From: a virus | Lineage: Duplodnaviria > Heunggongvirae > Uroviricota > Caudoviricetes | Strand: one strand, 5' to 3' | Virus record (IMG/VR): IMGVR_UViG_2534682162_000005 | Length of the DNA: 37,194 nt | Shown: piece after piece, positions 6,899 through 10,653 of the stretch | How the letters are laid out: each line of letters opens with the position of its first letter | How positions within the stretch are numbered: position 1 is the first letter of the stretch | Position numbers and translations under genes: made by a program | The notes under the pieces: model-generated | Database searches by the model: none | Told to the model about the DNA's origin: nothing | The model's input: only the letters and a program-made list of their open reading frames with translations

Positions 6899-7867
6899 TT
6901 AGTAGGTTATTTTTGTTGCGAATACTTCGCCTTTTACGATGGCTGTTATGATATTTTTAGCAACATCTTCTGATGCACCAACCTTGATAAGGTCAGCAAG
7001 TATTTTGTTATTTACTTCTTTCCGGTGAGCTTTATCCTTTGCTCTACGCTCTTCTTCGTCCTTGATTCTTTTTTCTTCTGCTATTCTGGCTTGCTCTTTT
7101 GCTTCAGCTTCGCGCCGGATTCGTTCAGCCTCCTCCTGTGCTTTTCGGCGTTCTGCTTCAATTGCCGCCTGCTTTTCTCTTTCAGCTCGTTCTGCTGCCT
7201 CTTTTGCTTCGCGCTGTGCTCGTTGCTCGGCTTCAATGCGTTCACGCTCTGCACGTTCCGCTGCTGCCTTAGCTTCTGCTTCTCGCCTTGCTGCTGCTTC
7301 AATTTCGGATTTTGCCTTTGCTTCGGCTTCTGCTCTGGCTTTCTCTTCAGCTTCTCTTTTTAAGCGTTCTTCATGCTCTCGCTTTTCCTGCTCTGCTTTG
7401 AGTCTTGCCTCTTCTCTTTTGCGGTCAAATTCGCGATCCATCAAAATCGCTATTTCATGGTCAGACTCAATTTGCTTTGCGAGAGCTTCAGCTGCTGCCT
7501 TAGCTTCTTCTTCGGCTTTAATCCGTGCCTGTTCCTCCTCATAATCAGTAAGAGGCTGGCGCGCCTTGGCTTTCAGTTCATCAAGGCGATCGCGCACTGT
7601 CTTGCGGTTGGCATCAATTAGCTTTGGAATTTCCTTCAGTTCAGCAACAAGGTCTTTGCCAAGACCATCGAGATATGTTTTCGTCTGCGCAACTTTATAC
7701 GCCAGAGAAGCGATCTCCTTTCTGCCCTTTGCCGTTGTGATATCAGGCACAAAGGACATAACTTCACGTTCAACCTTTTGAAGGATTTCTTCAATCTGGT
7801 CGGCAGACTTAAATACAGTCATTGCATTTGCTTTTTCAATAACAACTAAATCTGTTACTTCACTCAT
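6899..7867 (-). CDS. Coiled-coil protein with long charged E/A/K/R repeat region, about 322 aa
   Basis: Track ORF 6899..7921; start at Met 7867 (MSEVTDL) has GGAGG 4 nt upstream; central about 170 aa are EAKAAAE/REAEEKARAEAEAK-type repeats. Confidence 0.6.
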   Translation of the reverse strand: MSEVTDLVVIEKANAMTVFKSADQIEEILQKVEREVMSFVPDITTAKGRKEIASLAYKVAQTKTYLDGLGKDLVAELKEIPKLIDANRKTVRDRLDELKAKARQPLTDYEEEQARIKAEEEAKAAAEALAKQIESDHEIAILMDREFDRKREEARLKAEQEKREHEERLKREAEEKARAEAEAKAKSEIEAAARREAEAKAAAERAERERIEAEQRAQREAKEAAERAEREKQAAIEAERRKAQEEAERIRREAEAKEQARIAEEKRIKDEEERRAKDKAHRKEVNNKILADLIKVGASEDVAKNIITAIVKGEVFATKITY

Positions 7868-7879
7868 ATATCCTCCATC

Positions 7880-7906
7880 AAAAAAATTGCCCTCACACTG
7901 GAGGGC
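7880..7906 (-). terminator. Rho-independent terminator (tL-like) upstream of the coiled-coil gene
   Basis: Stem gccctc(7889-7894)/gagggc(7901-7906), loop acactg; A7 run 7880-7886 on plus strand gives a U-run on the minus strand. Confidence 0.45.
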
Positions 7907-8012
7907 AAAGAAGATTTCCAATAATCAGAACAAGTCGGCTCCTGTTTAGTTACGAGCGACATTGCTCCGTGTATTCACTCGTTGGAATGAATACACAGTG
8001 CTTATTCGCAGC

Positions 8013-8385: not shown

Positions 8386-8856
8386 CTAGTAGAATACCCA
8401 ATTTTCTGTTTCTTGGTTGTGTCCAAAGTTATATTCAATATCTGGTGTTGATGTATCAATATTCTTCATCCCATCAACAAGAGTTGATACAACAGCCAAA
8501 TCTTGTTTGATTCTCATTAAATGGTATTTCTTCCGGCGCAATAAACTCTCAATGGCAAGTTTCTTCGTTGGGAATGCAAAAGATCTTTCTGCATTTTTTG
8601 CTACTTTCTTAATTGCATATCTATTTCTCTTTTGTTTCCATTCCTGTAACCACTGATTTGGTGCTGGTTTAAAATTAACAATCCAATGCGCAGGAACCAA
8701 CCATGCATAATGCTCTGTCTGATGAAAAGCTATATATTGAAGTGCGAATATTTTGATTCCATCTTCTTCAACTGTCGCTTGGAATCTCCAGAAAACAGGC
8801 ATTCCATCATGTTCAGTTTCTGATTCAGGAAAAGGTACGCTCCATGATTTTGTCAT
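8386..8856 (-). CDS. Hypothetical protein, 156 aa, in AT-rich cassette immediately downstream of N
   Basis: Track ORF; GAGGTGA SD upstream of ATG at 8856; no TM segment or recognisable catalytic motif. Confidence 0.6.
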   Translation of the reverse strand: MTKSWSVPFPESETEHDGMPVFWRFQATVEEDGIKIFALQYIAFHQTEHYAWLVPAHWIVNFKPAPNQWLQEWKQKRNRYAIKKVAKNAERSFAFPTKKLAIESLLRRKKYHLMRIKQDLAVVSTLVDGMKNIDTSTPDIEYNFGHNQETENWVFY

Positions 8857-8864
8857 ATCTCACC

Positions 8865-9164
8865 TCAAATAAGTGGTTTGCTGCCTAATTTCATTTTCTG
8901 GCGACCAACACAAGTCACACCCATTTCACTGCGTGGCTTGCGGTAGTAAATACGATTCTGTTTACGCTCGACTTCTTCTGCCTTCTTGCAGCGAAGGCTT
9001 CCGAGTGATGCTGCTTTATCTGCTCTGACGCAACCAGAGAGCTTTAGCGCAATTTTTCGCGCCAGTCGCTGCTCTTGCATTGCCTGTTCACGTTGAGCCT
9101 GTCTGCGTGCTCTGCGGCGATTTCTGGCGTTATCGTCAGCCAGATATGTAATGACTACTGTCAT
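8865..9164 (-). CDS. N: N-like transcription antiterminator (P22 gene 24-like), 99 aa
   Basis: Track ORF; N-terminus MTVVITYLADDNARNRRRARRQAQREQ is an arginine-rich motif resembling P22 gp24; GGAGG SD; first gene downstream of PL/nutL. Confidence 0.75.
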   Translation of the reverse strand: MTVVITYLADDNARNRRRARRQAQREQAMQEQRLARKIALKLSGCVRADKAASLGSLRCKKAEEVERKQNRIYYRKPRSEMGVTCVGRQKMKLGSKPLI

Positions 9165-9478
9165 GTTGACCTCCGATGAAACAACTTTGGAATTTTTTTT
9201 ATTACAAAGTTGTTTCCTTCCCCGCCAATTAGACGGGGATGGAAGAGCATTTATGAGCCTTCATGGACTCTGCTCGATCAGTTCTATTTAATTAATCTCT
9301 CAACTGAATGTAAGTATTCACATAAATCCTCCTACCTCTTGTGCAGCTTTCTTGAATATGGTGGCGGCTGCATAACGCCTATGGAATTGACTTTGGCGGT
9401 GACGCGCCGGGTGCTTATCTTCCGGTTGCCGTCGTGCAGCTGCACTTCACGTCACCCCAAAGCCAACTACTCTTTGGT

Positions 9479-9519
9479 TCCCGCATTTCGGCGGGACAAT
9501 CCCATCAATGTTAAAGAGC
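9479..9519 (-). promoter_or_regulatory. nutL: boxA (GCTCTTTAACA) and boxB hairpin (UCCCGC-CGAAAU-GCGGGA)
   Basis: Reverse complement of 9509-9519 is GCTCTTTAACA; inverted repeat tcccgc/gcggga at 9479-9496; the same boxA/boxB pair recurs at nutR. Confidence 0.6.
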
Positions 9520-9566
9520 CTGCCAACCTGTTCCGTTTGGCTACCAGCGTCCTGCTGATGGCTTAA

Positions 9567-9649
9567 ATTTAAGATCTCTTTAATTAATGGTCAAGAGTAT
9601 TTTTGAAGAAAACTTAAATTTTCTTTCGTAACTTAAGTTTGGCTTTGAT
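9567..9649 (-). promoter_or_regulatory. OL operators (three about 18-bp sites of ATTTAAG..CTTTAAT type) with leftward promoter PL
   Basis: Sites at about 9567-9584, 9612-9629, 9631-9649; minus-strand TTGACC (9590-9595) with 17-nt spacer then TAAATT (9567-9572). Confidence 0.6.
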
Positions 9650-9662
9650 TTTTAAAGGAAAT

Positions 9663-9684
9663 AAAAAAAAGGGGCGAACGCCCC
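9663..9684 (-). terminator. Rho-independent terminator ending the cI (PRM) transcript
   Basis: Stem ggggc/gcccc at 9671-9684 overlapping the cI stop; A8 run 9663-9670 on plus strand gives U8 on the minus strand. Confidence 0.6.
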
Positions 9685-9685
9685 C

Positions 9686-10336
9686 TTATGGAAGGTTTGC
9701 TAGTTTTGCATCGACAACTACGCCGATGATTTTGCAGTTTCCGTTGATCTCGATCATCGGATATTGTGGGTTAAGTGGTTTTAGAAACTTCCTGCCTGCA
9801 TCAATAACTAACTTCTTGAAAGTTGCCTCGTTTTCTCCTTCGAGCTTTGCAACTACCAGTTTCCCGTTACGCGGCTCTACTTCAGGATCGACGAGTATTA
9901 TCATTCCTTCAGGGATACTGAGACCGGCCGGAGCCGTCATTGAGTCTCCCTTCACGTCCAACCAAAACGAATCTTCTGAACAGTCTACGGTTGTATCGTA
10001 CCAGTTATCTATTGCACGCTTATGATATGGTTCTACAGCTTCCATCCAGCATCCTGCGCTCACCCAGCTAATCAGAGGGTATGACCCTCTTGGATCATGC
10101 CTACTGTGATAGGCAATGTTTGAAAGACTTTCCTCTCCTTTCATCAGATAGTCAGGGGAACACTTCAACGCATTAGCCAGGGCGAGAAGATTCTCTCCAT
10201 TTGGCTCTGTCTCAGAGCGTTCCCACTGAGATATGGCAACATTAGACACGCCGACCATCTTTCCAAGTGCGGCCTGCCTGATCTTGAGTTCTTTTCTCCG
10301 AGCGCGAATGCGCTCTCCCATCAATTGAGTTTTCAT
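9686..10336 (-). CDS. cI: Prophage repressor, P22 c2-type (HTH plus S24 LexA-like autopeptidase), 216 aa
   Basis: Track ORF; MKTQLMGERIRARRKELKIRQAALGKMVGVSNVAISQWE... and C-terminal ...GDSMTAPAGLSIPEGMIILVDPE... match P22 C2 as I recall it. Confidence 0.95.
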   Translation of the reverse strand: MKTQLMGERIRARRKELKIRQAALGKMVGVSNVAISQWERSETEPNGENLLALANALKCSPDYLMKGEESLSNIAYHSRHDPRGSYPLISWVSAGCWMEAVEPYHKRAIDNWYDTTVDCSEDSFWLDVKGDSMTAPAGLSIPEGMIILVDPEVEPRNGKLVVAKLEGENEATFKKLVIDAGRKFLKPLNPQYPMIEINGNCKIIGVVVDAKLANLP

Positions 10337-10402
10337 AGTTAAGACATCTTAAATAAACTTGACTTAAGATTCCTTTAGTGGATAATTTAAGTGTTCTTTA
10401 AT
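10337..10402. promoter_or_regulatory. OR1-OR2-OR3 operators with divergent PRM/PR promoters
   Basis: Three 18-bp sites agttaagacatcttaaat (10337-10354), acttaagattcctttagt (10362-10379), atttaagtgttctttaat (10385-10402); PR -35 TTGACT 10359-10364 and -10 GATAAT/ATAATT around 10381-10387. Confidence 0.75.
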
Positions 10403-10416
10403 TTCGGAGCGAGTCT

Positions 10417-10602
10417 ATGTACAAGAAAGATGTTATCGACCACTTCGGAACCCAGCGTGCTGTAGCTAAAGCGTTAGGCATTAGCGACGCAGCAGTCTCT
10501 CAGTGGAAGGAAGTCATCCCAGAGAAAGACGCCTATCGACTGGAAGTCGTTACAGCTGGCGCCCTGAAGTATCAAGAAAGCGCTTACCGCAAAGCGGCAT
10601 AA
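10417..10602 (+). CDS. cro: Cro repressor (P22 Cro-type), 61 aa
   Basis: Track ORF; MYKKDVIDHFGTQRAVAKALGISDAAVSQWKE... matches P22 Cro as I recall it; divergent from cI across OR. Confidence 0.9.
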   Translation: MYKKDVIDHFGTQRAVAKALGISDAAVSQWKEVIPEKDAYRLEVVTAGALKYQESAYRKAA

Positions 10603-10608
10603 GCAAAT

Positions 10609-10653
10609 TGCTCTTTAACAGTCATGGTCCTCATTCCCGCCGAAATGCGGGAA
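10609..10653 (+). promoter_or_regulatory. nutR: boxA (TGCTCTTTAACA) and boxB hairpin
   Basis: boxA at 10609-10620 directly after the cro stop; inverted repeat ttcccgc(10634-10640)/gcgggaa(10647-10653) with loop cgaaat. Confidence 0.6.

Follow-up and report, generated by a model that had tools for sequence, protein, structure and literature searches.

For phage lambda, PMC5725501 (citing Wilson 1997 and 2002) places nutL about 200 nucleotides (nt) upstream of gene N and describes a repression of N translation by N and Nus factors at nutL, which acts via an RNA loop. The leader between nutL and N is presented there as highly structured, with RNase III modulating the repression (PMC5725501; Kameyama 1991, cited in PMC9032294). 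The present analysis concerns the corresponding region in a stretch of 37,194 nt, in the following called the window, from the IMG/VR virus record IMGVR_UViG_2534682162_000005. This region represents the leader PL-nutL-N in a prophage of the lambdoid group (CUS-3-like, P22 family); in this part the window and phage CUS-3 of Escherichia coli K1 have 98% identity. The leader extends on the minus strand from PL to N over 395 untranslated nt (9165-9559), compared with 188 nt in leaders which lack the additional sequence described below. It is almost certainly a composite, consisting of a lambda-type part (9386-9559) and a portable, conserved, non-coding module of 207 nt (9179-9385), designated here as the block. 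What is new is this conserved, structured, non-coding and portable module, which is polymorphic among E. coli prophages; the rest is an ordinary lambda-type leader. The elements of the region are the following:

9566-9594, minus strand: PL promoter, with -35 TTGACC, a 17-nt spacer and -10 TAAATT (9/12 matches in the promoter scan).
About 9559, minus strand: PL transcript start, ATCAGCAGGACGC, as in lambda PL, and common to lambda, HK620 and ENT47670.
9478-9519, minus strand: nutL, with boxA GCTCTTTAAC (9510-9519) and the boxB hairpin TCCCGCCGAAATGCGGGAA (9478-9496).
9386-9467, minus strand: RNase III-type leader hairpin, a stem of about 20 base pairs (bp) formed by GUUGGCUUUGGGGUGACG and CGUCACC-G-CCAAAGUCAAU, with one bulge.
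9382-9395, minus strand: left direct repeat CAAAGTCAATTCCA, at the 3' base of the upstream hairpin and at the joint where the block begins.
9179-9385, minus strand: the block (insert), 207 nt, non-coding, conserved and rich in hairpins; HK620, N7, lambda and ENT47670 are without it.
9176-9189, minus strand: right direct repeat CAAAGTTGTTTCAT, the 3' arm of hairpin H6 (see below).
8865-9174, minus strand: ribosome-binding site (RBS) and gene of the N antiterminator, with the Shine-Dalgarno sequence (SD) GGAGG at 9170-9174 and an open reading frame (ORF) at 9164..8865, 99 amino acids.

In an alignment, the sequence from PL to ...GCCAAAGTCAAT (window 9386) was common to the window, CUS-3, HK140, N7 and HK620. 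In HK620 and N7 it is joined straight to CATCGGAGGTCAACATG, which contains the RBS and start of N, whereas the window, CUS-3 and HK140 have 207 nt more at this point. The leaders of HK620, N7 and JEP4 resemble that of the window, with 98–99% identity over PL, nutL, hairpin and N start and with the same N type, and N7 and JEP4 also share cI with the window; all three are without the 207-nt block. A clean pair of filled and empty sites is provided by the sequence L043 and Cronobacter phage ENT47670, with an identity of about 99% upstream and of 97% in N. In ENT47670 the empty site reads ...CAAAGCCATTTCAC followed directly by ACGAGG, and in L043 the block is flanked by two perfect 14-nt copies of CAAAGCCATTTCAC. 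The two copies have diverged in the window (CAAAGTCAATTCCA versus CAAAGTTGTTTCAT). Lambda is also empty at this site and shares PL start, boxA and stem base with the window.

Of 5426 complete E. coli genomes, 158 carry the block, always at full length and chromosomal, with 1-4 copies per genome; by identity the copies form three classes, one at 95% or more, one at about 77% and one at about 70%. In 281 E. coli genomes the same flanks meet without an insert (empty junction), and about one in three such leaders of E. coli prophages has the block. A search of 50,697 phage records gave it in CUS-3 and HK140 only. Pattern scans of IMG/VR and of metagenomes added copies, which brought the set to at least 34 distinct sequences, and the comparisons reported here use n = 34; among the matches listed, the metagenome scan added only close variants. 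When genome contigs were scanned for distant relatives with an 18-mer of the block, AGGAGGATTTATGTGAAT, only chance matches in Firmicutes were obtained, and the patterns TTAATTAAAT...ATGCTCTT and GCTGCACA...TTAATTAAAT gave mostly chance matches and no new true copies.

Three unrelated N genes follow the block in different copies, namely those of the 21/HK620 type, the P22 gene-24 type and the 933W/HK97-like type, and at least five different sequences of nutL plus hairpin precede it. A boxA upstream and an N-type ORF right after the block were present in 77 of the 86 copies examined; contig ends, boxA spelling variants and frameshifted N genes account for the remaining nine. Within the block, two alleles, A and B, form a patchwork. 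The sequence L060 contains a recombination scar after the block, with two successive joints of the form CACCAAAG...GGAGG...ATG: at L060:2700-2830 (minus strand) the start of a 21-type N gene, CATCGGAGGTCAACATGACA, has been kept and is followed by the joint CACCAAAGTTCAACCGGAGGTTTCTATG, which leads into a 933W/HK97-like N gene. Taken together, junctions, scar, allele patchwork and distribution mean that the spread of the block fits recombination at short conserved joints. Boundary sequences are short conserved joints between modules. The CUS-3 record labels the homologous gap between cI and N as "bsq5; boundary sequence", and, as with the boundary sequences of HK620 and CUS-3, the joints of the block are short motifs, CACC(A/G)CCAAAG, common to unrelated leaders; the scar in L060 is located there. 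Unlike a boundary sequence, the block is a 207-nt, internally conserved and structured module between two such joints. The only annotations found for it are the label mentioned and some doubtful hypothetical proteins, and it is absent from Rfam.

The following motifs and hairpins were recognized in the block:

9342-9372, minus strand: hairpin H1; TGCAGC (9367-9372) pairs with GCTGCA (9342-9347); the arms are invariant, the loop varies between alleles.
9316-9333, minus strand: invariant 18-mer AGGAGGATTTATGTGAAT, with SD at 9328-9333, AUG at 9321-9323 and UGA at 9318-9320, a start-stop mini-ORF.
9305-9320, minus strand: hairpin H2, opened by UGAAU of the 18-mer.
9286-9295, minus strand: invariant AU-rich run TTAATTAAAT, predicted to be mostly unpaired (unpaired probability 0.73 in the window and 0.56 in HK140).
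9245-9275, minus strand: hairpin H4; GAGCA (9271-9275) pairs with TGCTC (9245-9249), and the interior pairs as well.
9214-9244, minus strand: hairpin H5; CCCCG/CGGGG with flanking UUCC/GGAA.
9178-9216, minus strand: hairpin H6, GAAACAACTTTGTAAT / ATTCCAAAGTTGTTTC; the right direct repeat supplies the 3' arm, and 3 nt separate the hairpin from the SD of N.

Representatives of the lineages were 62-84% identical over the block, and 113 of 228 alignment columns were invariant. Six invariant runs were found (CCAAA, TGCAGC, GCTGCACA, AGGAGGATTTATGTGAAT, TTAATTAAAT and CAAAG), and these islands mostly pair with each other across variable loops. The longest of them, the 18-mer AGGAGGATTTATGTGAAT, was identical in 34 of 34 variants and occurs once in the window; its order AGGAGG-AUUU-AUG-UGA is unchanged in all copies, which is what a start-stop mini-ORF looks like at the level of sequence. 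All six pairs of H1 were retained in all 34 sequences, with no variation. The outer stem of H4 was paired in 100% of the sequences and contains an independent swap from GC to AU in L060; in its interior three pairs change on both sides between the alleles. The closing pair of H5 switches from U-A to G-C between alleles (16 versus 16 sequences). In P22-type copies both arms of H6 change together, from C-G to U-A and from A-U to G-C, and so track the repeat of that leader; most copies tolerate one mismatch in this hairpin. With a model of five hairpins, 94.9% of the cells were standard pairs, as opposed to 36-46% when the partners were slid, and seven pairs changed on both sides, versus one or two in the slid controls; two of 500 shuffles reached seven.

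Since the 18-mer had also served as a search pattern, ascertainment bias was checked with other patterns and with BLAST. Copies from metagenomes which were found via ATGCAGCCGCCA...GCTGCACA all keep the 18-mer, a scan with the flanking islands gave no copy without it, and the most divergent E. coli copy found by BLAST (69.5% identity) retains all islands. Folding of the whole leader gave -144.5 kcal/mol, compared with -112.6 +/- 6.4 kcal/mol for shuffled sequences (z = -5.0; none of 100 shuffles was as good), which exceeds chance and confirms the suggestion of an initial annotation, made from the sequence without searches, that the leader is structured. The upstream hairpin (-40.2 kcal/mol, z = -4.9), the CCCC/GGGG hairpin H5 (-21.0 kcal/mol, z = -5.2) and the terminal hairpin H6 (-15.0 kcal/mol, z = -5.6) have z-scores which are descriptive, as these hairpins were picked after being seen; the z-score of the whole leader is free of that bias. 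It is probable that the module is under selection for some function, and this selection would appear to be largely for structure.

The lambda-type part of the leader could be assigned by homology. The PL start was set at about 9559 via the start sequence of lambda, and HK620 annotates pL at the homologous position. The boxA GCTCTTTAAC compares well with the consensus GCUCUUUAAC; after cro, a nutR with an identical boxA (10610-10619, plus strand) and an identical boxB hairpin (10635-10653) is present, so that both early transcripts carry the same boxB hairpin, and the homologous 42 nt are annotated as nutL in HK620. From boxB to the AUG of N the distance is about 313 nt. The N protein contains the arginine-rich motif NARNRRRARRQ. 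Its homologue is named N in the annotations of CUS-3 and HK620, and a close variant is called "transcriptional antitermination N peptide" by the Prokaryotic Genome Annotation Pipeline (PGAP); the match of the ORF in the window to Pfam N_peptide was weak (20.2 bits, under the cutoff).

Between boxB (ending at 9478) and N (9164) lies the RNase III-type hairpin, with a long, imperfect duplex of about 20 bp, i.e., about two helical turns. It encloses a 12-bp palindrome and a CCGG/CCGG stem, and ggtgacg/cgtcacc forms the middle of its helix. The stem base GGCTTTGGGGTG / CACC(G/A)CCAAAG aligns with lambda (NC_001416), where GGCTTTGGGGTG ... CACACACCACCAAAGC is followed by the N RBS. The lambda leader has the same order of elements, the PL start ATCAGCAGGACGC, the boxA core and a boxB hairpin, and its long hairpin has the homologous base GGCUUUGGGGUG / CACC.CCAAAG; this hairpin we take to be the RNase III site in lambda. 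The hairpin of the window is its predicted counterpart, and cleavage is presumed from this likeness. Six other insert-bearing leader types have unrelated interiors and still form a long hairpin with a 3' base ...CACC(A/G)CCAAAG... (z = -3.1 to -4.8); thus, across seven leader types it is the form of the hairpin that is conserved and not its sequence. There is one clear difference to the known leaders: in lambda, HK620 and ENT47670 the 3' arm of the hairpin is directly upstream of the SD of N, which follows about 10-20 nt past the 3' base, whereas in the window the 207-nt module intervenes and H6 holds that position.

All repeats which the initial annotation had listed were located. The pair ggtgacg (9398-9404) / cgtcacc (9450-9456) proved to be part of a longer repeat (9393-9404 / 9450-9461), the 12-bp palindrome GTGCAGCTGCAC is at 9434-9445 and ccccg/cgggg is at 9220-9224 / 9234-9238; the stem beside the N RBS is real and longer than described, with 16 nt and 94% complementarity (9178-9193 / 9201-9216). 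A counterpart of the lambda N-leader hairpin is also present, as stem base, PL start and boxA align with lambda. The proposal that the longer leader as such holds an RNase III-type element was correct for the lambda-type hairpin, which contains the first three of the repeats; the extra length is a separate module, and the last two stems belong to it. The suggestion of a small RNA (sRNA) did not hold up: the block showed no promoter- or terminator-like site on either strand and no Rfam match, and neither tRNA nor tmRNA was detected. Promoter and terminator scans of the region gave PL and PR only. An independent sRNA gene has no support, since a promoter of its own and an intrinsic terminator were not found. 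The Rfam scan which had been recommended gave no match in the leader; with Rfam 15, over 8500-10500, on both strands and at E <= 10, there were four weak matches, all outside the block, three of them overlapping the cI terminator and the OL/PL stretch and one the start of N.

The block may well be a cis-acting leader module of the PL transcript. It would fold autonomously into five or six short hairpins. In block-less leaders the 14-nt repeat sequence makes up the 3' base of the RNase III-type stem and the SD of N comes straight after it; in filled leaders the left repeat would still close this stem, and the right repeat would pair with an arm supplied by the block, giving H6. Beside the N RBS, H6 would recreate the stem-then-SD context of block-less leaders, and nutL with the big hairpin would be moved 207 nt further from the N RBS, with compact RNA between them. 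The order SD-AUG-UGA could serve as a ribosome-loading site, ribosome binding being presumed from the motif, and the structure together with a parked ribosome might protect an untranslated leader of this great length against Rho and RNase E. The link of N translation to RNase III cleavage and to autorepression by N/Nus at nutL would then be altered; that the module retunes the dependence of N translation on both is put forward tentatively. It is more speculative, and rather doubtful, that the block represents an undescribed family of portable leader RNAs which rewire the circuit of N autoregulation and RNase III, with ribosome loading at the start-stop and insulation of the N RBS from nutL, or else an RNase III-excised, trans-acting RNA made only on induction or infection. 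The overlapping AUGUG could perhaps also be used from GUG, a type of start described in PMC9841429, which would give ORFs of 3-9 codons, differing between alleles.

Start-stops of E. coli (yecJ, hslR) bind ribosomes and slightly lower the expression of their host genes (bioRxiv 10.1101/520783). They share with the 18-mer the Shine-Dalgarno sequence, the AUG and the immediate stop, but they are inside coding genes and not in a 5' leader. The bar minigenes of lambda are tiny ORFs in the PL transcript as well; they have two codons (AUG AUA stop) and act via drop-off of peptidyl-tRNA, a mechanism which is impossible for a start-stop. For bar minigenes, PMC2490762 refers to Hernandez-Sanchez 1998.

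Several observations weigh against a cis-acting sense-strand module. H1 and H2 never vary and therefore provide no evidence from covariation; the number of independent lineages behind the compensatory changes is small (alleles A and B, the P22 type and L060); and the spacing from SD to AUG in the 18-mer is only 4 nt. The block is dispensable, since N7 and JEP4 with the same immunity region live without it. Predicted accessibility of the N RBS was 0.35-0.36 in filled and 0.36-0.39 in empty leaders, i.e., there is no simple thermodynamic effect on N translation, and sequestration of the SD by the block is not supported; the unchanged value is consistent with a block that rebuilds the stem-then-SD context. 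Consensus folding with RNAalifold gave -33.9 kcal/mol for the sense and -37.9 kcal/mol for the antisense strand, and mean folds of the block alone were -60.3 and -64.7 kcal/mol, respectively, with the sense strand better in only 10 of the 34 sequences. A common G/A single-nucleotide polymorphism at window position 9304 (A3 column 118; TTCAGTTG versus TTCAATTG) breaks a stem, CAGTT/AACTG, which is present in allele A only, on the sense strand, and would leave a G.U pair on the antisense strand.

Structure does not pick the strand, the fold z-scores being -4.4 (sense) and -4.3 (antisense) for the window and -3.0 and -4.6 for L043. A functional RNA from the antisense strand, in which the 18-mer would read AUUCACAUAAAUCCUCCU and could act as an anti-Shine-Dalgarno-like seed for the N leader or other mRNAs, in analogy to lambda OOP and P22 sar, has to be considered; its folds are equally or more stable (L043; block-only means), two A.C mismatches of H6 in P22-type copies become G.U pairs there, and with the common polymorphism the allele-A stem is kept on that strand only. 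We judge it improbable, as neither a promoter-like site on the plus strand nor a convincing terminator was found in the block or near it (one plus-strand terminator match, 9392-9411, belongs to the upstream hairpin, and its T-tract is poor), while the N gene downstream differs completely among N types, which leaves no shared external antisense promoter. In addition, the neighbouring genes of the window are all on the N strand, Rfam matches were absent for both strands, and over shared helices G.U cells outnumber A.C cells by 58 to 24, leaning to the sense strand, with few events behind these counts. The surroundings of the block speak for the sense strand: no promoter-like site other than PL reads through it, its orientation and its distance relative to the N RBS do not change, the downstream sequence differs completely among N types, and SD-AUG-UGA has a meaning on the N strand only. 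On the whole, action of the module in cis and on the sense strand seems somewhat the better expectation. A protein product can be dealt with more briefly. The block is non-coding on both strands, because codon phases are flat, 2-nt indels occur and a conserved start is lacking: substitutions between lineages are even over the phases (15/19/14, 14/19/12, 13/13/11 and 13/17/13), the alleles differ by two 2-nt indels which bring the conserved islands into different frames, and among the variants no conserved start on either strand and no conserved antisense SD were seen. The absence of a plausible coding frame had been noted initially and was borne out, sense ORFs being short and unconserved and the antisense stop-free frame being without codon-phase bias or conserved start. 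That a small protein or leader peptide is encoded (the sense upstream ORF (uORF) HK140_048, an MQPP peptide at ATGCAGCCGCCA, or an antisense protein of 118-129 amino acids called by PGAP) is thus very improbable, even though annotations of this kind exist for HK140 and from PGAP, the antisense frame remains open for 51-79 codons in all variants, and ATGCAGCCGCCA is nearly invariant, the change from ATG to GTG in one variant still giving a start. Besides phases and indels, the MQPP peptide has 13, 17 or about 53 residues of unrelated sequence depending on lineage, L014 breaks the antisense frame, and the antisense "hypothetical protein" was called by PGAP in only part of the genomes; the coding explanation is largely refuted.

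It could also be argued that the block arose as a side effect of mosaic recombination among lambdoid phages, or is a small selfish insert, brought into N leaders in either case by recombination at the CACC(A/G)CCAAAG joints. It would then play no part in N expression, and its conservation would be due to recent spread or to constraints unrelated to the phage, e.g., hairpins for its own transfer. The direct repeats of 14 nt, perfect in L043 and present as one copy in the empty ENT47670, are those expected, as a target-site duplication, of a miniature inverted-repeat transposable element or a miniature element derived from an insertion sequence, and the presence/absence polymorphism among near-identical immunity regions, the two CACCAAAG...GGAGG...ATG joints in L060, the "bsq5; boundary sequence" label of CUS-3, the patchwork of two alleles and the unaffected accessibility of the N RBS would agree with this explanation. 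It is nevertheless considered rather unlikely. Lineages differ by 16-38%, yet six invariant runs of up to 18 nt persist and stems are maintained by compensatory changes, which speaks for purifying selection and not for recency. Terminal inverted repeats were not seen and no transposase or integrase was associated; all copies examined were in N leaders, with at most four per genome, all in prophages, and the 5' arm of H6 co-varies with the repeat sequence of the host leader, which indicates selection in situ. A further possibility is that RNase III, cutting at the upstream hairpin, and RNase E or III, cutting near H6, free the module from the PL transcript, and that it then works in trans on targets of host or phage, either as an sRNA or as a sponge for proteins, comparable to DicF, which is described as being cut from a prophage operon transcript (PMC5069750, PMC10448788). 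The block lies directly 3' of the RNase III-type hairpin, ends in a 16-bp hairpin, has a compact autonomous fold and is independent of N type and immunity type, and its unpaired invariant runs might act as seeds or bind proteins. Release of such an RNA is improbable, as a terminator-type 3' end or a U-tract typical of Hfq-dependent sRNAs is absent, no complement of the 18-mer exists elsewhere in the phage window, and the strict position by the N RBS would not be needed for a trans-acting RNA.

Some candidates for parts of the block were tried and rejected. The sequence UGCUCUU(U/C) resembles the core of boxA, as in suhB and nut boxA sites, and is followed after 3-5 nt by the GC hairpin H5, which gives a nut-like layout; a boxA is able to repress translation from up to 100 nt upstream, as stated in PMC5725501. 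However, this sequence is the 3' arm of H4, and in L060, where it reads GUUCUU, the opposite arm has changed to match, so that pairing is kept and not the identity of boxA; a single-stranded, conserved boxA core GCUCUUUA was not found inside the block, and H5 is constant across N types and is thus not a boxB. The run TTAATTAAAT as a three-frame stop cassette was dismissed, as it contains stops in two frames only, and as a repressor operator, since operators of this immunity type resemble CTTAAATTTAAG and the block occurs with several immunity types. A 10-mer, ATTAATTAAA, is present both in the PL spacer (9579-9588) and in the AU-rich run (9286-9296); this is probably a coincidence, because the PL regions of other immunity types with the block lack it. 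A rut-like, C-rich stretch for loading of Rho was not apparent, C being not clearly above G in the block. Alternative pairing of the 5' arm of H6 with the left repeat, as a switch, could form in L043 with its two identical repeats; in the window three central mismatches interrupt it, and the pairing is not conserved. The sRNA svsR, from the 3' end of cI in a lambdoid prophage of E. coli NC101 (PMC12803456), and the Pas sRNAs, which adjoin structural genes (bioRxiv 10.64898/2026.05.13.724894), were ruled out as the identity of the block by their locations. DsdC on CUS-3 relates to neuO and not to the N leader.

Further observations were made on ORFs in and near the leader. Block-less leaders (L004, HK620, about 1290-1400; L003, N7) contain a uORF of 25 codons which starts with GTG in the palindrome GTGCAGCTGCAC and ends with a TGA overlapping the ATG of N (ACATGACAG); this overlap could couple translation. 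In the window the same frame (9335-9445, minus strand) stops inside the block at TAG (9335-9337), just before AGGAGG, and in allele-B copies it stops at the UGA of AUGUGA, which corresponds to HK140_048; the peptide is not conserved. RefSeq contains hypothetical proteins of 118-138 amino acids antisense to the N leader, e.g., L005:1320-1709 (UTI89, WP_011478232.1) and L008:1320-1736 (WP_249398376.1), corresponding to window 9210-9566 (plus strand); antisense calls over the leader are probably spurious. In L007 (E. coli M172-1, 862-1719) a gap of 857 nt between repressor and N has no annotation; HK620 and HK140 have a small hkaS-like gene after cI. A 340-amino acid ORF in the PL operon of the window (6899-7921, minus strand) is very rich in E, K, A and R, and its homologue in UTI89 is listed in RefSeq as "cell envelope biogenesis protein TolA", frameshifted. 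The repeated palindromes CTTAAATTTAAG and ACTTAAGT in OL and OR (window 9565-9640 and 10340-10400) are presumably the operators of this immunity type. The repressor region comprises:

10336..9686, minus strand: cI-type repressor, with Peptidase_S24 and a helix-turn-helix.
9687..9668, minus strand: cI terminator hairpin.

The control of N synthesis times the lytic cascade of lambdoid phages and is a textbook case of post-transcriptional regulation, with N/Nus bound at nutL, RNase III and a structured leader. In about a third of such E. coli prophage leaders, the critical interval from the RNase III hairpin to the N RBS is taken up by a conserved, structured and dispensable module, which is shared by three unrelated N proteins. 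Several "hypothetical proteins" in databases which lie over this leader can be flagged as probably spurious. The pairs CUS-3 and N7, and L043 and ENT47670, represent a natural plus/minus experiment on the N circuit, and the block is a candidate for a new family of cis-regulatory RNA.

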